A stretch of 64,000 nt of DNA, from IMG/VR virus record IMGVR_UViG_2724679237_000005, positions 32,001 through 96,000 of that record; one strand, 5' to 3'. The position numbers were made by a program, and so were the translations under genes. The notes below the pieces were generated by a model. The model worked only from the letters and a program-made list of their open reading frames with translations. It made no database searches and had not been told where the DNA came from. Origin of the DNA: a virus. Taxonomy: Duplodnaviria; Heunggongvirae; Uroviricota; Caudoviricetes. How positions within the stretch are numbered: position 1 is the stretch's first letter; each line of letters opens with the position of its first letter. Shown one piece after another: positions 5,100-45,762 of the stretch.

Positions 5100-5129
5100 G
5101 TGTTTTTCCTTTTGTTTTTTGATGTGTTT

Positions 5130-5148
5130 AAACAAGTTGTTATCTTAT
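5130..5148 (-). promoter_or_regulatory. conserved palindromic element AAACAAnTTGTTnTCTTAT (site 1, upstream of nrdB)
   Basis: motif recurs at 23251, 29287, 42815, 45744. Confidence 0.5.
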
Positions 5149-20778: not shown

Positions 20779-21234
20779 TCAACGGGGAGTAATAAAGCGT
20801 TCAGAGCCTAATCGCTCTAATTCAACGATGGCCATCTTTGACGCCTGAACGATCATGTCTCGGCGATGCGAAAAGGCGGCGACAGCATGTTTGTATATGT
20901 CTGCGATGTGCCGTGCTTCATCCAACTTCTGCCGTTTAGACAGATACTGTGGGTTTGTTTTAACCTTAGCGTCCAGTACAGATTCGTTGAACTTAATGCC
21001 GTTCATACTCAAGTTCTTACGCTCTGTGTCGTATAGCTTTGCTTCAACAGCTTCAAGGTTAAGTTTTGCTTCTGCGACACTTCTTTCTGCATGGGCGAGT
21101 TTTGAGCCATATTCCATCAACAGGCGGGGTTGTCTACGCCAGACTTCTTCCAGATTGTCTCGGTCAAACTCGAGATCAGACATTATTTTCTCGTAAATAT
21201 CGGCGATCATGCGCATTTCCTTATCACTTATCAT
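20779..21234 (-). CDS. hypothetical protein (coiled coil)
   Basis: 151-aa ORF. Confidence 0.45.
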   Translation of the reverse strand: MISDKEMRMIADIYEKIMSDLEFDRDNLEEVWRRQPRLLMEYGSKLAHAERSVAEAKLNLEAVEAKLYDTERKNLSMNGIKFNESVLDAKVKTNPQYLSKRQKLDEARHIADIYKHAVAAFSHRRDMIVQASKMAIVELERLGSERFITPR

Positions 21235-21335
21235 TTTGTATTGATTATATCATTGTAATGATGAGGCAATGAGCTTGAAGATAGGGGGGGGAGGGGATAA
21301 GGGAAAACATGGCCTTTATGGCCATGTTTATTGGA

Positions 21336-22505
21336 TCACGTCTTAATAGTTTCTGCTACGTCGGCTAATATCGCTTCTAGTCGTTCTCCCTCTTCAGGTC
21401 TGAAGTAAAGAATGTTGGGGTTAAACCCGTAAAAGACAGTAACGTCAAGGTCTGGAAGATACTCCTTCCTGCCGACCAAATCGGATGGCTTGTTTTTGTT
21501 GTTAAACAATGCCGTTGCCCGGCTGCCACACGTCAGCACATAGGTCGGACGCACCAGATTGATCTCTTCACGTATAAAGTCGGTGAACTGGCCGATCTCG
21601 TCTTTGGTGTAGTCTTTTTCTTTGTCTTTAACCTTCTTGCAAACGCCTGTGACATAGAGATCGCCCATGCGTAAATCTCCAGCCGTCAATAGCTTGGCCT
21701 TAAAGTCGTCGTATCCGTTCTCCATAAAGTAACCGGTTCGAGCATCATTGCCGTTCGCATTGTCCAGAATGATCATGATTTTCGGCTTAATACCAATGCT
21801 GGGGCGGATTAGTTCATCACCTAAGCCCATTTCAGCCGCCATCCGCGTCATGAGTACGTTAATTTCAGCCGAACGTTTGGGGTTCATCTCAAACGAACGT
21901 GAGGCTTTAACTGCGTCTATGACAAGATTTCCCATCAATTCAGCCTGGTCGCGTAGGCGCTCTGGAGCAGTTGCTGGCAGACTACCTGGCTCGATGGATG
22001 CAAACGCCCCTACTTTTTGCAGCGATTCGCGCACTCGACTATTACAGGCACGTTTCTCGACAGCTTCTTCGAATTGCGCCAGTGACTCGAATTTGCCGCC
22101 AACTTTTTCTCGCGCTCTCATGATGGCTTGGCAGCCATTCTCAGAACACCCCTTCACAGCAGAGAATGGCGCATACAGCACCTGGCTGCCATCTTCAAGC
22201 GTGCGGATCTCGATTCGGTTAGATGACACGTTAACGTCTGGTGGCAATACGCGAATTCCATAGGTCAGCGCATCTTTAACCAGCCCTTGGTGTTTATCTT
22301 CGCCAAGAATAGTGAGAGCAGCAGCGAAAAACTCTGCGGGATAATGAGTTTTCAACCACATAGATTGATAACTGATTAAGGAGTAAGCAACAGAGTGTGA
22401 TTTGTTGAAGGCATACGCGCCGGATTTCTCAAACATATTCCAGATTTCTTCGGCTCGTTCGTGCGTCAGGCCATTGCTCTCTTCAACTACACTGGTAATT
22501 TTCAT
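21336..22505 (-). CDS. dnaE: DNA polymerase III alpha (DnaE-type) C-terminal fragment
   Basis: YAFNKSHSVAYSLISYQSMWLKTHYPAEFFAA matches DnaE segment following the fingers domain. Confidence 0.8.
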   Translation of the reverse strand: MKITSVVEESNGLTHERAEEIWNMFEKSGAYAFNKSHSVAYSLISYQSMWLKTHYPAEFFAAALTILGEDKHQGLVKDALTYGIRVLPPDVNVSSNRIEIRTLEDGSQVLYAPFSAVKGCSENGCQAIMRAREKVGGKFESLAQFEEAVEKRACNSRVRESLQKVGAFASIEPGSLPATAPERLRDQAELMGNLVIDAVKASRSFEMNPKRSAEINVLMTRMAAEMGLGDELIRPSIGIKPKIMIILDNANGNDARTGYFMENGYDDFKAKLLTAGDLRMGDLYVTGVCKKVKDKEKDYTKDEIGQFTDFIREEINLVRPTYVLTCGSRATALFNNKNKPSDLVGRKEYLPDLDVTVFYGFNPNILYFRPEEGERLEAILADVAETIKT

Positions 22506-23236
22506 TCAGTCACCTCATCAATCTTCACGAACTCATACCCATTGGAGGCCAGCCAGTCCCGCTGGCGCTCCCAGCTCCATACCTTTTCACGCATTTCGCT
22601 ATGCAGGCGAATGTGGGCGTCTTCTGGAAGTGCCACCAGATTCCCAGGGGCGTTATCTACCGTATCGCGGTTAATATGGTGGACATGTTCATCGTCACGT
22701 AGCTCCCGACCGAGACGTTCTTTCGCTATCAACCGATGAACGTATTCGTATTGCGAAACGCCATTGTTACCAACCAGCTGCATCATGTAGCCGTTGGTTT
22801 TTACGATGATGCCATCTTTGTAGTTGTTCGCTTCTTCTCCGATCTTTCCGCGTTTGGCAGCCGCCAGCTTTTCCTTCGTCTCCGCGCGGATTGTTCTGCC
22901 GGTTAGCTTTTTCGAAACGGTGGCCACTCGCTCATCGATATCAGCACGCAGACCGGCATTCCACGAGGTTTTCCCATACATAGGGTTGCCAGTGCCAGTC
23001 CGGGCTTCGGAGAGTCGCTTCATACGTTCGTCATTATTTTTGTTTTTGCCACGATTCCAGGCTGGGGTAGCGGAGATCCGCGCGTTTCCGCGCCTGATCC
23101 CCCATTTGGCTAATAAGCGGTCAATATTTGCCTTGCTGCAACCAGCTTCGGCGGCAATGTCTTCTTTTCTCATCAGGTCAACCATGTAACGCTGACGTAA
23201 CCATTCTTCTGTGATTTTGTACTTCGTACTCGGCAT
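22502..23236 (-). CDS. HNH homing endonuclease inserted between dnaE fragments
   Basis: C-terminal HNH motif (EHVHHINRD...N) plus NUMOD-like repeats. Confidence 0.75.
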   Translation of the reverse strand: MPSTKYKITEEWLRQRYMVDLMRKEDIAAEAGCSKANIDRLLAKWGIRRGNARISATPAWNRGKNKNNDERMKRLSEARTGTGNPMYGKTSWNAGLRADIDERVATVSKKLTGRTIRAETKEKLAAAKRGKIGEEANNYKDGIIVKTNGYMMQLVGNNGVSQYEYVHRLIAKERLGRELRDDEHVHHINRDTVDNAPGNLVALPEDAHIRLHSEMREKVWSWERQRDWLASNGYEFVKIDEVTE

Positions 23237-23250
23237 TTCTAAGACTCACT

Positions 23251-23269
23251 AAACAAATTGTTTTCTTAT
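23251..23269 (-). promoter_or_regulatory. same element, site 2 (upstream of HNH endonuclease gene)
   Basis: AAACAAATTGTTTTCTTAT. Confidence 0.5.
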
Positions 23270-23284
23270 CTTATAAATTAATTC

Positions 23285-25648
23285 TCAAATATCGAAGCTC
23301 GTTATGTCGGCATTTATTGCCATTGCTTCGGCATAAGTGCGACGCTCACCATCAGCACAAAGTAGGCGTGCTGCTTTATGGATTTTTCTCGTAGAACCGT
23401 CATCCAGTGACACTGTCACCCAGCCTTCCTCCGCTCGCTTAATGAAGTCGCCGCCAATGGATTTCATTTTCTCCATATCTTTTTTCCCGATCGCTTTCCT
23501 GACCGAGTCTGCTTCCGCCATTGAGAACCCCGCCAAGATTCGCGTAGCAGCCATGATCTGTTCCTGATAAATCAGAACACCGTTTGTGTCGCGAGAGATG
23601 TCGTCCAGCATAGGGTGTAAGGAATGTGGAGCCATGAAGCCTTTGGCCACGGAGACATAGTCGTCCAACATGCCGGATTGAATCGGGCCTGGTCGGAAGA
23701 GTGCGGTCGTGGCGACAACGGTCTTGAAGCTCATTGGCTCGATGCCACCGCCCAGATCTTTAAGCAACTTACGCATGGGGCCGGACTCCAGCTGGAATAC
23801 GCCCTGCGTGTACCCTGCAGCGAACCCATCCAGAACCTTGCGATCGTCCAGTGGGATAGCGTCGAGATTGATATCTTCACCTGTGTTCTCTTTTATGTAG
23901 CGTTTTGCACTATCGAGCAAATCGAGAGTTGCCAGGCCAAGCACGTCCAGCTTAATTAGGCCCATAGCCTCGCAGTAACGCTTGTCAAATGCGATACAAC
24001 GCGCGTCACCACGTCGTTCAACCGGTGTACGTTCTGTCAGAGGAACACCTGCTACGATCATCCCTGCCGCATGTCTACCAAAGCCACGCATAAGGCTTTG
24101 TAACTTGCAGGCTGCATTGAATGCATCAGGATATTTTGTTGCGTATTTGTCGAGACTTGCCAGTTGTTCGCGCAGTTCTTCCAATGGAAGGCTATCATCC
24201 TCAGCGTTCTTCAGTTCTTTTGATACCGCCATATCTGCGGACTCCACACCATAAATACGAGCGGTGTCACGTAGTGCAGAGGCTGCGCCCAGGTAGGTGA
24301 AGTTCGGAATGCCTGCAACGTAATCTTCGCCGTAGCGTTCATTCAGATACTCGATCACCTCATGGCGACGTGCCTGGCTGAAGTCCAAATCCGCATCTGG
24401 CAAGTCGAGACGCTCAGGGTTGATGAAACGCTCAAACAGAAGACCGTGACGGATTGGGTCGACGTTGGTTATGCCTATGCACCACGCCACCAGAGAACCG
24501 GCAGAGGAACCACGACCAGGCCCAACGGGAATGCCAGTTTCACGACTATGATTCATCAGATCGCGCACCATCAGGAAGTAACCACAGAATCCCAGGCGAG
24601 TCAGCGTGTCCATTTCGTACTTTAGCCGCTCAACATAAACCCTGTTCTCAGAAGCAGGTGGTGTGTATCCAAACTCTTTTGTGGTAAGACGTTTACGCAG
24701 CCCTGCAACAGCCAGTTTCATCAGCGTTGCAGGTTCGTCGTCTGCCATCTTGGGCAGTGCTGGTGGCAATTCATGCCAGCGCCATGTGCAGGAATCGATA
24801 ATGGTATCCTGCGTTGTTGAGGCCATTGCAGCTGTTACAGGCACATCCATGCGAACGGAGAAGGCTTTAAGCGCCTCAAGGAGATGGCGGCGACCATTGA
24901 CGGCGTTATCTCGCTGGTGGGGGATACGCAGACGATGCGGCTGGTCGATTTTGATGTTGTTCGTAACCATGTGCGCAATGTCTTTAATGTCTGCATCGTC
25001 GATCGATTCGTAATAAGCGGGATAGAACGCCACTGGCTCTATTTTCAATGCGCTGGCGACTTTCATCGCCCGGACGTTAATCTGGTCGTAGAATGGGGTA
25101 GGGTGCGGATAAACCACACTATAGAAGTTGTCTTTTCCACCCGCTGTAATCAGTGTGCTTATGATTTTTGCAAAATCGTTGCGTTGGAACACGCTACCGA
25201 TGTCGGAAGTAAGCAGGATGATGTTGCCTTTGGCATATGTAGAAACCAACTGTTCGAGCGAGAGACGCGGTACAAAGTAGAACTGTTCTCGTGTGTTGGC
25301 CGCCGTCATTAGTTCGCAGATGTCGCGATATCCTTGCTCATTTTTAATTAGAGCGGTAAACGAGTAGTTACGTCCCCGCTCTAATGATTCCATACATCTC
25401 ATAGATTCTTTAGCAAGTTTAGCCCGGTGCTCGTATGTGGGATCATCAACAATGTTTAGTTTCACACCACAAATAACCGCCATGTCGTCACCAGCGGCAC
25501 GTTGTAGTGGAATAACGCTCGCAATATTCATGCTATCTGCTGAAATTACAGCGGTGTAGCCAGCTTCTCTGGCAATCTTCACCGCGTTTTCTGCTTTTAG
25601 AGCCGACTCCCCAAGTGAGAAGTCAGTTCGAACCATCAGTGCCTTCAT
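23285..25648 (-). CDS. dnaE: DNA polymerase III alpha (DnaE-type) N-terminal fragment (PHP, palm, fingers)
   Basis: GFCGYFLMVRD, PVGPGRGSSAGSLVAW, FQLESGPMRKLL, LFRPGPIQSGM, IYQEQIMAA align to DnaE. Confidence 0.85.
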   Translation of the reverse strand: MKALMVRTDFSLGESALKAENAVKIAREAGYTAVISADSMNIASVIPLQRAAGDDMAVICGVKLNIVDDPTYEHRAKLAKESMRCMESLERGRNYSFTALIKNEQGYRDICELMTAANTREQFYFVPRLSLEQLVSTYAKGNIILLTSDIGSVFQRNDFAKIISTLITAGGKDNFYSVVYPHPTPFYDQINVRAMKVASALKIEPVAFYPAYYESIDDADIKDIAHMVTNNIKIDQPHRLRIPHQRDNAVNGRRHLLEALKAFSVRMDVPVTAAMASTTQDTIIDSCTWRWHELPPALPKMADDEPATLMKLAVAGLRKRLTTKEFGYTPPASENRVYVERLKYEMDTLTRLGFCGYFLMVRDLMNHSRETGIPVGPGRGSSAGSLVAWCIGITNVDPIRHGLLFERFINPERLDLPDADLDFSQARRHEVIEYLNERYGEDYVAGIPNFTYLGAASALRDTARIYGVESADMAVSKELKNAEDDSLPLEELREQLASLDKYATKYPDAFNAACKLQSLMRGFGRHAAGMIVAGVPLTERTPVERRGDARCIAFDKRYCEAMGLIKLDVLGLATLDLLDSAKRYIKENTGEDINLDAIPLDDRKVLDGFAAGYTQGVFQLESGPMRKLLKDLGGGIEPMSFKTVVATTALFRPGPIQSGMLDDYVSVAKGFMAPHSLHPMLDDISRDTNGVLIYQEQIMAATRILAGFSMAEADSVRKAIGKKDMEKMKSIGGDFIKRAEEGWVTVSLDDGSTRKIHKAARLLCADGERRTYAEAMAINADITSFDI

Positions 25649-25832
25649 GTGTTTTTACCTTTCTGGTTTTTTTGATTTTGTCATTGGGGAAGCCTACGAA
25701 CTTCCCATGCATCGAAATCGCAACTTCTTTTGCTGATTGGTGACAATCGGGCTTGTCTGGACACACCAGACAAGCCTTACCAGTTTCAGAAGCAGCGATA
25801 AGAGAGCCGAAACATCCTTTACGCACGATCAA
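25623..25832 (-). CDS. small Cys-rich hypothetical protein
   Basis: 69-aa ORF with C-x4-C...C-x2-C-x5-C-H; overlaps both neighbours; weak. Confidence 0.25.
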   Translation of the reverse strand: MIVRKGCFGSLIAASETGKACLVCPDKPDCHQSAKEVAISMHGKFVGFPNDKIKKTRKVKTHEGTDGSN

Positions 25833-27064
25833 CCAAATATTTTTTGAACAACTTCACGAGCCGCTTGTGCAGAAGCTGAAGGGAGTTTGTTAATGAAAGA
25901 ACGCTCAATACCTGTCACAAAGTCGCCTCGCATCATTCCAATCTTGGCCGACAACAAAAGTTCACGAGGGCCAATTGGCTGACTGATAAGGTGTTCTTCG
26001 TATCCATCGCGAACGATACCGGCAAACTTAACCATCTTTTCTGCGTATTCATCCACGATACCGGCATTTATCAACATGTTGATCTCTGCCTCTTTGCTCA
26101 TGTATTTCACATTCGAAACGATGCCAAAACGCGAAAAGTTCGCGGCGTTCTGGATGTTTGTACCCTGGTACAAGCCGGTTTCATCACCAGATCCGTTCGT
26201 GTTGCCAGTGCCAATGAAAGCAAACCGTTCATGCGGAGTAATGCGACGCCATTCTGGAGTCGCCTCTTTGATGACCAACGCTTCACCTTCCAGCACTGGC
26301 TGATACACGCCAAGAATCTGTGGAAACGCAAAGTCGTATTCATCCGCGAGGTAAACCCAGCCATGCTTCATTGCGAGCGCAAGCAAGCCAGGTTCGAAAT
26401 ACGTAGAGCCATCACGCGCCAGAATTTGCCCCGTAACATGTGCCTCTTCCATTGATGCTGTATGTTGGGCACGGATCAACGGACGATTGAGCAAAGCACA
26501 TAGCTGTGTAGGCAATGACGATTTGCCTGTTCCTGCATGACCCCACAAATAGCCAGGTATGCCAAGTTCAAGCATCATGAAAATATCTTTGATCAGTTCG
26601 AAGTCGCCATATACGTAGCCTTTCTTCACTTCGGGAACGAACTCTGGAAACGGCGTATTGACGTTGACGCTAACCATGAGCGGCGTCCCACGTTTTGTTC
26701 CGAGTTCTTCCACCGTTACGTCTAGCAGTTCGTGAGCTGCGACCAGATCTGTCTTGTACTCAACTGTGCCTGTGTAGCCTGGGCTACTGGTCACGCCAGA
26801 TGATTTGGCCATTTCGCTTTTTTGCTCGGCACGTTTAGCTTGAATTGCATCAAGTGCCTTTTTCGATAGCGTTGGCTCATCTGGAAACTGTGTTGTGTAC
26901 ATTTTCAGTACGGTGTCAGGATCGGCATCTTTTACTGACTCAGGAATGCCCTCGCAATTACCATTGGCTACATGGGACTTAAAATAGTGAAATGATTTTC
27001 CGCACCACTTGCAAACAAGGTAATCAGAAGGATTTTTTTCATTTTGCAGTGCAGTAGTCGTCAT
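25829..27064 (-). CDS. CobS-like / MoxR-type AAA+ ATPase
   Basis: Walker A GHAGTGKSS, Walker B LADEYD; paired with vWA gene. Confidence 0.7.
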   Translation of the reverse strand: MTTTALQNEKNPSDYLVCKWCGKSFHYFKSHVANGNCEGIPESVKDADPDTVLKMYTTQFPDEPTLSKKALDAIQAKRAEQKSEMAKSSGVTSSPGYTGTVEYKTDLVAAHELLDVTVEELGTKRGTPLMVSVNVNTPFPEFVPEVKKGYVYGDFELIKDIFMMLELGIPGYLWGHAGTGKSSLPTQLCALLNRPLIRAQHTASMEEAHVTGQILARDGSTYFEPGLLALAMKHGWVYLADEYDFAFPQILGVYQPVLEGEALVIKEATPEWRRITPHERFAFIGTGNTNGSGDETGLYQGTNIQNAANFSRFGIVSNVKYMSKEAEINMLINAGIVDEYAEKMVKFAGIVRDGYEEHLISQPIGPRELLLSAKIGMMRGDFVTGIERSFINKLPSASAQAAREVVQKIFG

Positions 27065-29286: not shown

Positions 29287-29305
29287 AAAACAAATTATTT
29301 ACTAG
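29287..29305 (-). promoter_or_regulatory. same element, degenerate site 3 (upstream of CobT-like gene)
   Basis: AAACAAATTATTTACTAGT. Confidence 0.35.
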
Positions 29306-31945: not shown

Positions 31946-33208
31946 ATGCCTTTTTTAATTTTCATTATTATACTACTGCTCACCGTGATTTTTTGGGATT
32001 GGGTTGTTTTAAATGGTCAAATTGTTGGAACATTGGCTACAGCATTTGCTTTTATAGCAACAGCATGGAATGCCTACGAAGCGAGAAAAAGTGCAAAAGC
32101 AGCTTTTTCAGCCCTTCAATTAACAACAGAATCATTGTTCGAAATGCGAAAGAGTGCATTTAAACAATGGTTTGATTCCTTATTAAATCAACATGATGAG
32201 CTATGTCTTCTTGCAAAACAAATTATCGATAAACGCAAAGTTAATTTAAACAGCGATGAGTTACATAGACTATATTACCCATTGGTAAAACAGCATGAGG
32301 TAATACAGTATGTGAAGCATATTATTAATATTTTTGAGTATGTGGATAGTTCATTTTATATTGATGGGGAATGTCTAAAGGAAAAAAGAGCGTATGTGTC
32401 ACAATTAATTTTCAAAATCCCACCTCAGATGAAGTTGATCATTGCTATCTTTGGATTAAAAATCGATTATTGTGAACATATTAATTCGGGAAAACTGTGT
32501 TGTTTATTGAATAAATATGATTTTTTCAATGATGAAATATTTTTTGATGATGCTTATTCAGATATGCCTTATCTGGATGCATTCATAAACCTTAGATTCA
32601 ACAAAATATTCAAATCTCGAATGATAAATTATTTTGATAATATCATTAAAAGTTATTATGTTCCATCGGACGTTAAAAGGGACTGGATGTTTCGAAACCC
32701 AAAGCTCGTGCCGTCGGTTCTTATGAATTATAAAACTCCTTGTTCTCCTATAATTAATGATTACTTTGAGAAGTTGCCTTTACATGTAAGAAACTACTTT
32801 GAGGAACTACTTAAAACCGCGAATGATAGAGTTACTCATTTTGACGTTTACATCCCACGCCTTATTGGTTGTTCAATCGTGCAACATTACGAAGATGTGC
32901 CTTCCGAAAAAAACAGGTTAAATGACAGGAATGATGTAATAGCTATGGCTGAAGATTACATCGAGAAAAGAAAATATAATCAACTGGATTACATACTTGA
33001 AGATATATACTTCAAGAGTGACGAAGATATAATCCCTGGCCACCATTTGATTGTGGCATTTGATGACTATGAATTTAAATTATCACTCATTAAGATAAAT
33101 GAGAATAAAGATAGCGATAATCTTTTAAATCGAATTTATACTGAATCCAGTAGCATGGTTAAAGAATATAAGCGCGAAATATTAAAACTGGGCGACTATG
33201 TAAAGTAA
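31946..33208 (+). CDS. membrane-anchored protein of unknown function in AT-rich island (candidate defence or exclusion protein)
   Basis: 420-aa ORF, two N-terminal hydrophobic helices, strongly AT-rich versus surroundings, own terminator. Confidence 0.6.
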   Translation: MPFLIFIIILLLTVIFWDWVVLNGQIVGTLATAFAFIATAWNAYEARKSAKAAFSALQLTTESLFEMRKSAFKQWFDSLLNQHDELCLLAKQIIDKRKVNLNSDELHRLYYPLVKQHEVIQYVKHIINIFEYVDSSFYIDGECLKEKRAYVSQLIFKIPPQMKLIIAIFGLKIDYCEHINSGKLCCLLNKYDFFNDEIFFDDAYSDMPYLDAFINLRFNKIFKSRMINYFDNIIKSYYVPSDVKRDWMFRNPKLVPSVLMNYKTPCSPIINDYFEKLPLHVRNYFEELLKTANDRVTHFDVYIPRLIGCSIVQHYEDVPSEKNRLNDRNDVIAMAEDYIEKRKYNQLDYILEDIYFKSDEDIIPGHHLIVAFDDYEFKLSLIKINENKDSDNLLNRIYTESSSMVKEYKREILKLGDYVK

Positions 33209-42793: not shown

Positions 42794-42814
42794 GTGCTTT
42801 CCTTTGTTTTTTTT

Positions 42815-42833
42815 AAACAAATTGTTTTCTAGT
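42815..42833 (-). promoter_or_regulatory. same element, site 4 (upstream of helicase gene)
   Basis: AAACAAATTGTTTTCTAGT. Confidence 0.5.
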
Positions 42834-45708: not shown

Positions 45709-45743
45709 TGGAGAGTTCCCTTTGCGTATATAATTATCGTCTG

Positions 45744-45762
45744 AAACAACTTGTTTTCTTAT
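45744..45762 (-). promoter_or_regulatory. same element, site 5 (upstream of parA)
   Basis: AAACAACTTGTTTTCTTAT. Confidence 0.5.

Follow-up and report, generated by a model that had tools for sequence, protein, structure and literature searches.

Fractured genes, in which the halves of a split intein are accompanied by a free-standing homing endonuclease gene located between them, were described in a study of metagenomic data that includes three DnaE loci (Dassa et al., 2009; PMC2677866). In T4-like phages, 'genes in pieces' comprise nrdA of Aeh1 with the endonuclease gene mobE, gene 39-60 of T4 with mobA and gene 43A/43B of the Aeromonas phages 25 and 44RR, where the halves are separated by a seg gene in the former and by an untranslated spacer only in the latter (PMC2988022). 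Intron-encoded HNH endonucleases, finally, reside in the DNA polymerase genes of the phages SPO1 (I-HmuI) and Pf-WMP3 (I-PfoP3I) (PMC3428280). Here we characterize a split dnaE gene on the minus strand (21336-25648) of a 64,000-nucleotide stretch of DNA, in the following referred to as the window, which spans positions 32,001 to 96,000 of the IMG/VR record IMGVR_UViG_2724679237_000005. The window belongs to an SSU5-like phage-plasmid of E. coli, with the Escherichia phages CMS-2020a, PhiR41_1 and Cyrano and the Salmonella phage SSU5 as nearest phage records. We propose, with a probability of about 0.7, that this locus encodes a DnaE consisting of two polypeptides, with a homing HNH gene residing between their genes and with the break located inside a decayed DnaE-type split intein, whose halves would assemble non-covalently.

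The list of open reading frames (ORFs) and the sequence itself bear out the three-ORF layout described in the initial annotation, with dnaE-N (787 residues), the HNH ORF and dnaE-C (389 residues) following each other in the same direction (Table 1). Searches against Pfam identify the PHP, DNA_pol3_alpha and DNA_pol3_finger families in dnaE-N, which aligns with the α-subunit of E. coli DNA polymerase III (E. coli α) as far as residue 730 (HMMER) and ends in FIKRAEEGW followed by the 44-residue tail (VTVSL...SFDI). The start codon of dnaE-C overlaps the stop codon of the HNH ORF (ATGA) and its product, matching HHH_6 and, weakly, a uracil-DNA glycosylase (UDG) family, aligns from about residue 8 onwards with E. 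coli α 731-893 and contains the FNKSHS motif at residue 33. Because the break separates the RKAIGKK and FNKSHS motifs of the fingers, the active site would require both polypeptides. The same three-ORF arrangement is found, at 90-99.8% identity, in 25 plasmids of PLSDB originating from E. coli, Enterobacter and Cronobacter and in 23 of 5,426 complete E. coli genomes, about 244 of which carry an SSU5-type dnaE in all. Since an identical arrangement recurs in 25 plasmids and 23 genomes, the split is not an artefact of sequencing or assembly, which counters the earlier reservation that a continuous dnaE might emerge upon correction of sequencing errors.

The initial annotation had also pointed to a near-duplication of sequence at the junction. 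The stretches 'cga gcg gag gaa ggc tgg' and 'cga gcc gaa gaa atc tgg' do match at 14 of 18 nt, yet this is at chance level, with 25% of codon-shuffled 300-nt flanks matching equally well or better, and the two motifs correspond to neighbouring helices of DnaE. KRAEEGW is equivalent to residues ~727-735 of E. coli α (FIKRAEEGW to ~722-730(735)) and ERAEEIW to residues ~738-745 (HMMER against Pol III α, 2HNH); both motifs are 48 residues apart in intact relatives, and counterparts of both segments are present within a few residues of each other in DnaE proteins lacking the insert. A duplication was thus rejected, the motifs being adjacent helices and not copies.

The second explanation that had been offered at the time, a group I intron carrying the HNH gene with the tails of both ORFs resulting from read-through, deserves attention since HNH genes in phage polymerase genes are commonly intron-encoded. 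Splicing of such an intron, of either group I or group II, would restore an mRNA coding for a single full-length DnaE. A search for intron structure against Rfam (release 15, E≤10, positions 21000-26000) has returned no match to any group I or group II family, the non-coding sequence around the HNH ORF is limited to 48 nt on its 5' and 0 nt on its 3' side, and the tails are conserved coding sequence that is also present in contiguous homologues. The same stop and restart are found in relatives without HNH gene, where the halves are 69-70 nt apart. In Buttiauxella p1WJP83, the spacer of 69 nt still contains the context of the HNH start codon as well as ~20 nt from the 3' end of the HNH gene and thus constitutes a deletion derivative, which also retains AGGTGG, the equivalent of the Shine-Dalgarno sequence of dnaE-C; in K. 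oxytoca pCAV1099-111, the spacer comprises 70 nt. With an unrelated HNH gene occupying the same break in other lineages, we consider an intron exceedingly improbable.

Alternatively, insertion of the endonuclease gene could have killed dnaE, leaving two decaying remnants in an element that is replicated by host polymerases. Such a scenario would agree with the labelling of the C-fragment as pseudogene ('missing N-terminus') by the annotation pipeline PGAP in some records. Conversely, the ratio of nonsynonymous to synonymous substitution rates (dN/dS) amounts to 0.03-0.05 in dnaE-N and to 0.02 in dnaE-C, a range of 0.02-0.05 that includes comparisons between split lineages, and both halves are, as judged by these values, under strong purifying selection. 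The eight full-length split loci that were read, among them the one of the window, contain neither frameshifts nor premature stops, the split is conserved with invariant start and stop positions in at least 20 clusters below 50% identity, and dnaE-C has retained a strong Shine-Dalgarno sequence. We therefore regard a dead gene as very unlikely. In NZ_CP070135 (L008; 3997-5115) and other RefSeq records, PGAP calls the C-fragment a pseudogene ('incomplete; missing N-terminus') with a start placed 51 nt downstream of the real ATG, which is a systematic mis-annotation of a conserved cistron.

The presence of separate start codons, the Shine-Dalgarno sequence of dnaE-C, the purifying selection, the persistence of the split without endonuclease gene and its occurrence in at least 20 lineages all favour the split polymerase of two polypeptides that had been considered initially, and we hold the description of the locus as two cistrons plus a homing endonuclease gene with high confidence. 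Its three cistrons are probably co-transcribed, since a scan for promoters and terminators, although constituting weak evidence, predicts no site on the minus strand between them.

The origin of the break is reflected in the sequences that flank it. The statement in the initial annotation that the 44-residue tail has no equivalent in DnaE holds for canonical DnaE proteins but fails for the intact proteins of SSU5, PhiR41_1 and CMS-2020a (1168-1172 residues; three records fetched), where our alignment finds tail and head to form one contiguous in-frame segment. The ~55-56 residues between the flanks constitute an insertion at position 730/731 of E. coli α (HMMER), which lies between the RKAIGKK and FNKSHS motifs of the fingers. 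As in E. coli α, this insert is missing in contiguous plasmid DnaE proteins of Sinorhizobium (L015) and A. baumannii (L014), the latter being elsewhere 64% identical to a split A. baumannii protein. In a search of 177,635 PDB sequences, where targets were not chosen beforehand, a first profile of the insert derived from 10 sequences found cyanobacterial and halophilic DnaE inteins in 14 of the 17 top matches, with a best E-value of 0.0012. The diverse tails of a deeper profile came from exhaustively searching 1.84 billion representative proteins (clustered at 50% identity) with HMMER, and with the N-tail profile of 32 sequences all 12 top matches in the PDB were DnaE inteins (E = 1.5e-5 to 2e-3). 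Positions 6-41 of the tail pair with residues ~60-100 of the intein, which cover the region of block B and the following strands (LEDGSxIRATKDHKFMTxDGxMLPIDEIFExELDL).

Comparisons of the profiles with the Npu, Ssp and gp41-1 inteins in hhalign yield P = 1.6e-5 for the first and P = 2.3e-7 (probability 93.5%) for the deeper profile, with none of 400 column-permuted profiles coming near the observed score. The relevant segment of the Npu sequence used here was confirmed by the PDB alignments. The alignment is collinear through the break, and stop and restart are no more than 1-2 residues away from the position where IntN and IntC of Npu are naturally split (...MRVDNLPN|MIKIATRK vs ...ITSFDI|MKITSVVE). 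All C-fragments recovered from divergent lineages begin with M(K/R)(I/V)xx(I/V/L)... and contain FNKSHS at residue 33, although the C-head alone is too short for significance. Structures were predicted with AlphaFold2 (AF2) for the contiguous homologues P0001 and P0059, and the cyanobacterial split DnaE intein is the best match of the insert in both sequence and structure. The break is thus flanked by sequences resembling halves of the Hint fold of inteins. By sequence and predicted fold, the N-tail is homologous to residues ~57-100 of IntN, its C-terminal half, and the C-head is homologous to the strand with which IntC begins. In the alignments, the break coincides with the natural split site, which is also where endonuclease domains sit in inteins. 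An intein ancestry of the tails is in our view highly probable.

The same comparisons define what has been lost. The tail starts with ...EEGW|VTVSL, where there is no Cys or Ser, and aligns from residue ~56 of the intein, and the ~55 N-terminal residues with the nucleophile (Cys/Ser1) and block A are gone. The Thr-x-x-His of block B is replaced by His and Ala in the window and by His and Glu in the SSU5 type. On the C-terminal side, a head of only ~9-12 residues leads directly into canonical DnaE (…EESNG|LTHERAEEIW, equivalent to E. coli 731 and following), and there are no blocks F and G, no terminal (His-)Asn, no Cys, Ser or Thr at the +1 position and no HN[CST] motif. Since all catalytic residues are gone, the vestige cannot splice. 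It is, moreover, retained in frame in the contiguous proteins of SSU5, PhiR41_1 and CMS-2020a and in the homologues P0079 and P0115, whereas a genuine intein would be absent from a contiguous product. An active, atypically small split intein, whose trans-splicing would yield one DnaE as in cyanobacteria, could account for the homology of the tails to split-intein halves and for the location of the break at their natural split site, and one complete-looking split intein is found in the same DnaE family; active fractured DnaE genes do exist (PMC2677866). Yet with the described loss of residues, the preservation of the vestige inside contiguous proteins and a size of ~55 residues compared to ~125-160 in joined split inteins (Npu 138, Ssp 159, gp41-1 125), the probability of such activity is in our judgement close to nil. 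As far as its sequence tells, the vestige is homologous to an intein without being one.

The dnaE of the A. baumannii plasmid pM175-3.1 (L013, NZ_CP059475; 74-2667) additionally contains the complete-looking split intein at GPGRGS|C, with an IntN that carries Cys1 and TKDH and is followed by a stop, a Cys-rich ORF of 343 residues without Pfam match and an IntC ending in VHN|C. At the downstream break of this gene, the NUMOD4 ORF is degenerate (63 residues), and the dnaE is thus in three pieces. At the sequence level, this locus shows that live fractured genes occur in this dnaE family.

Several observations weigh against the proposed intein-derived assembly. The similarity to inteins is confined to ~40 residues at ~20% identity. 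When applied to seven insert sequences at E≤10, Pfam detects no Hint or intein family but only noise such as SH3-like matches, a common β-hairpin motif (V-x-V-x-L-x-D-G) makes up the first third of the profile and also draws unrelated repeat proteins, and the AF2 models could be biased toward known folds. In hhalign, the vestige profile has no significant similarity to the intein at the GPGRGS site of A. baumannii, a genuine intein of the same gene family; at the sequence level, the similarity of the vestige is specific to the DnaE-intein lineage. The cyanobacterial DnaE intein is inserted at AEY|CFNKSHS (E. coli α 754/755), ~24 residues downstream of the break at 730/731, and the two therefore do not originate from the same integration event. 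Searches for homologues with the junction region and the insert profile have returned mostly short fragments and C-fragments and no intermediate intein. The existence of two polypeptides, their assembly and their polymerase activity are all inferred, and site-specific cleavage by the HNH protein is putative. Finally, several contiguous alleles carry the vestige (SSU5 type, CMS type, P0079 and P0115), and the order of events could have been reverse, with a stuck contiguous mini-intein later being split by the insertion of an endonuclease gene into its hairpin loop.

The results from Pfam, the common hairpin motif and the missing similarity to the A. baumannii intein would also be compatible with a plain gene in pieces, where a homing HNH gene has entered a surface loop of DnaE that is specific to the lineage and where the likeness of a generic small β-meander to inteins has arisen by convergence or coincidence and not by common descent. 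Genes that were split by endonucleases and have no intein are well documented (PMC2988022). The case for an intein is built on a signal that is specific to DnaE inteins in sequence and on the predicted fold, and we thus judge a plain gene in pieces to be unlikely.

The mobility of the HNH gene can be deduced from its immediate surroundings. The ORF matches NUMOD3 and HNH_3 (E 8e-8) in Pfam and, over its full length, the PHROG family 21964 'HNH endonuclease', and its catalytic domain is recognizable by the intact motif HVHHINRD...N...AHIRLH. As in described genes in pieces, it is located between two ORFs whose joint counterpart in close relatives is a single contiguous gene, and its presence or absence is polymorphic. 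The identity of the window to CMS-2020a and PhiR41_1, which both carry an intact dnaE, amounts to 99-100% on either side of a tract of ~1.47 kb (25648 to ~23870 and ~22400 to 21336), whereas the tract itself is 96-98% identical to split-A alleles of Enterobacter and Buttiauxella but only 50-88% identical to intact alleles. Between its breakpoints (23872-23865 and 22409-22393) are the spacer and the HNH gene, flanked by ~580 nt from the 3' end of dnaE-N and by ~105 nt from the 5' end of dnaE-C. Such import of flanking host sequence is, as read from the identity profile, the classic signature of co-conversion during homing. At synonymous sites, the HNH gene is 4-9 times less divergent (dS 0.12-0.28) than the flanking halves (dS 0.6-1.4), and its dN/dS is 0.23. 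A tblastn search of the phage collection with the HNH protein found only distant matches (<60% identity).

In other elements, the same break is occupied by a different gene. A NUMOD4-HNH(-HTH) gene, whose architecture is unrelated to that of the HNH protein of the window, is found at this position in elements of Klebsiella and Enterobacter (243 PLSDB plasmids) and in plasmids of Aeromonas and Acinetobacter, where DnaE shows 39-47% identity. With a mutual identity of 33-43%, these NUMOD4 proteins are about as divergent as their host genes. The junction pattern, ...(D/E)-I-x-x-F-x-x-stop followed by M-K-I-x-x-(V/I/L)..., is kept throughout the split loci. Since the same junction is combined with different endonucleases, the break is old and the HNH gene of the window a later occupant. 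This gene would act as a selfish homing element that cuts the intact dnaE alleles of co-resident relatives, whose recombinational repair would copy it in together with flanking dnaE sequence.

Among the 63 significant matches in the 1.84 billion representatives, at least 20 are N-fragments of 745-791 residues that end right after the vestige and only about two are contiguous, and the split is therefore the common state. When intact and split-B junctions are compared codon by codon, the contiguous SSU5-type allele contains a Met exactly at the position of the C-fragment start (…KLP-M-AAVRV…), and the CMS-type allele equals the Klebsiella split allele without the segment FGV-stop…MKIAK. The sequences of these contiguous alleles fit independent 'healing' events by fusion. 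Whether the split is the ancestral state is, in light of the reverse order considered above, a matter of even odds. A database protein of 304 residues (P0038), in which a RecA-like domain (PF00154) follows the ~63 N-terminal residues of a B-type dnaE-C (MKIAKVISEQ...PAEFFAAA), suggests that the locus exists in some contigs as a variant formed by deletion or rearrangement.

Our proposal of an assembly from two halves also draws on their charge. The N-tail is acidic at its end (mean -2.5, with 28 of 32 tails being negative) and the C-head is basic (mean +1.7), a polarity that equals the one of IntN and IntC of Npu, whose association begins with the electrostatic capture of disordered strands (PMC11766414; Dassa et al., PMC2677866). 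By analogy, the acidic strands of the N-tail and the basic strand of the C-head may pair like the halves of a split intein, and their pairing would rebuild the fingers and the active site without covalent linkage. That the vestige serves as a non-covalent clasp formed by pairing of β-strands appears to us equally probable as not. In this process, the ancestor would have been a fractured gene composed of a split intein and a free-standing endonuclease, in which splicing ceased and the intein was trimmed, and the slot of the endonuclease would afterwards have been emptied or re-occupied by different HNH genes. As a tentative extension, to which we assign somewhat less than even odds, the locus may be a fossil fractured gene, where a half-Hint module of ~55 residues has retained heterodimerization as its sole job, the split being ancestral in a large DnaE family of phages and phage-plasmids, with several independent healings via the vestige and an endonuclease slot that is recycled by unrelated HNH genes.

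Table 1. Features of the split dnaE locus in the window. Assignments to intein halves are by predicted homology.
Feature	Position	Strand	Description
dnaE-N	25648..23285	-	787 aa and TGA stop; PHP, polymerase core, most of the fingers domain, then 44-aa tail
Putative vestigial IntN-like tail	23288..23419	-	aa 744-787 of dnaE-N, VTVSLDDGSTRKIHKAARLLCADGERRTYAEAMAINADITSFDI
Intercistronic spacer between dnaE-N stop and HNH start	23237..23284	-	48 nt; contains palindromic motif and predicted RNA hairpin
HNH homing endonuclease gene, free-standing, 'type A'	23236..22502	-	244 aa; NUMOD3 and C-terminal HNH_3
Shine-Dalgarno sequence GAGGTG of dnaE-C	22511..22516	-	within 3' end of HNH ORF, 5 nt upstream of ATG; read from sequence
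dnaE-C	22505..21336	-	389 aa and stop; remaining fingers, helix-hairpin-helix domain, UDG-like C-terminal domain
Putative IntC-like head MKITSVVEE	22479..22505	-	first strand after the break
Imported (co-converted) tract	22401..23868	-	~1.47 kb; from sliding identity and per-site mismatch maps

The spacer between dnaE-N and the HNH ORF contains the palindromic motif AAAACAATTTGTTTA (23250-23264). In the form A(T/C)(A/T)AG-AAAACAAnTTGTTTA (minus-strand sense), the motif occurs at five sites of the window (5129-5143, 23250-23264, 29287-29301, 42814-42828 and 45743-45757), each 14-36 nt ahead of the ATG of a different minus-strand gene, and its exact core is found at three sites where 0.09 are expected. 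The same palindrome is present in the spacers between the dnaE halves of Buttiauxella, K. oxytoca (in two copies) and Acinetobacter plasmids, and it is probably an operator or RNA element at gene starts that is common to the family. The region 23215-23300 (minus strand) is predicted to form an RNA structure of -15.8 kcal/mol (z = -2.8, with none of 200 shuffles being equally stable), in which the last codons of dnaE-N pair with the first codons of the HNH ORF and a hairpin covers its weak ribosome-binding site. This prediction suggests translational coupling or repression of the endonuclease, and the hairpin recalls the translational control of mobE (PMC2988022).

Two further features concern the ends of the dnaE genes. 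The C-terminal third of dnaE-C (21336-21700) contains a UDG-like domain (Pfam PF03167, E 0.003 in the window and precomputed on many homologues), at a position where cellular α-subunits carry an OB-fold and a τ-binding tail. PGAP names the C-fragment 'uracil-DNA glycosylase' or 'helix-hairpin-helix domain protein', and the corresponding PHROG family 4335 is of unknown function. At the other end, a conserved Cys-rich ORF of 67-69 residues (…CLVCPDKPDCH…; 25623-25832, minus strand), which overlaps the start of dnaE-N by 26 nt, is annotated as hypothetical in relatives (SSU5_051) and matches no Pfam family.

Both split inteins and genes that are split by endonucleases are known, and what would be new, if our interpretation is correct, is a decayed split intein that is retained as association module. 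In the library searched, we found no paper that deals with a split dnaE of SSU5-like elements or with a comparable natural relic of an intein, and to our knowledge no decayed natural split intein has been described that is kept as a non-splicing module for association. If true, our proposal would reveal the fate of a fractured gene once splicing is lost. It would also provide a natural minimal pair of intein-derived strands (~44 and ~10 residues) that may suffice to assemble a large enzyme, which would be of interest for protein engineering, and it would explain the 'broken' dnaE found in hundreds of clinically common phage-plasmids of Klebsiella, Enterobacter, E. coli and Acinetobacter, a gene that automated annotation lists variously as pseudogene, 'helix-hairpin-helix protein' or 'uracil-DNA glycosylase'. 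E. coli, where intact and split alleles reside in backbones that are 99% identical, would offer a tractable system to measure homing, co-conversion and the turnover of endonuclease genes.

Among known systems, the locus resembles in its layout the fractured genes of Dassa et al., with which it shares dnaE as host gene, the succession of host-N and IntN-like sequence, endonuclease gene and IntC-like sequence and host-C on one strand of one locus, the break at the intein split site and two long antiparallel strands of complementary charge. Unlike in these genes, the intein is reduced to a ~55-residue vestige that contains none of the five catalytic residues and hence does not splice, the endonuclease is of the HNH type (NUMOD3 or NUMOD4) instead of GIY-YIG or Vsr-like, and the vestige is retained in contiguous 'healed' alleles. 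With the cyanobacterial split DnaE intein (Ssp, Npu; PDB 1ZD7, 2KEQ, 4KL5, 4QFQ, 7QIL), it has the host protein and the fingers region in common, whereas the latter intein is complete, trans-splices and is encoded by two genes at separate loci without endonuclease gene. The T4-like genes in pieces resemble the locus in the free-standing HNH or seg gene between the halves of an essential replication gene, and the spacer-only split of 44RR finds its equivalent in the short dnaE spacers of Buttiauxella and K. oxytoca. While their halves work as separate polypeptides, a property that we deduce here from the genes, these splits have no intein-derived flanks; the dnaE split affects a C-family polymerase in phage-plasmids, is far more widespread and older and has accommodated two unrelated HNH families in a single slot. 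As in the case of I-HmuI and I-PfoP3I, an HNH gene interrupts a phage polymerase gene, but in contrast to these endonucleases it is found here at a break that displays no detectable intron RNA structure and has no room for one.

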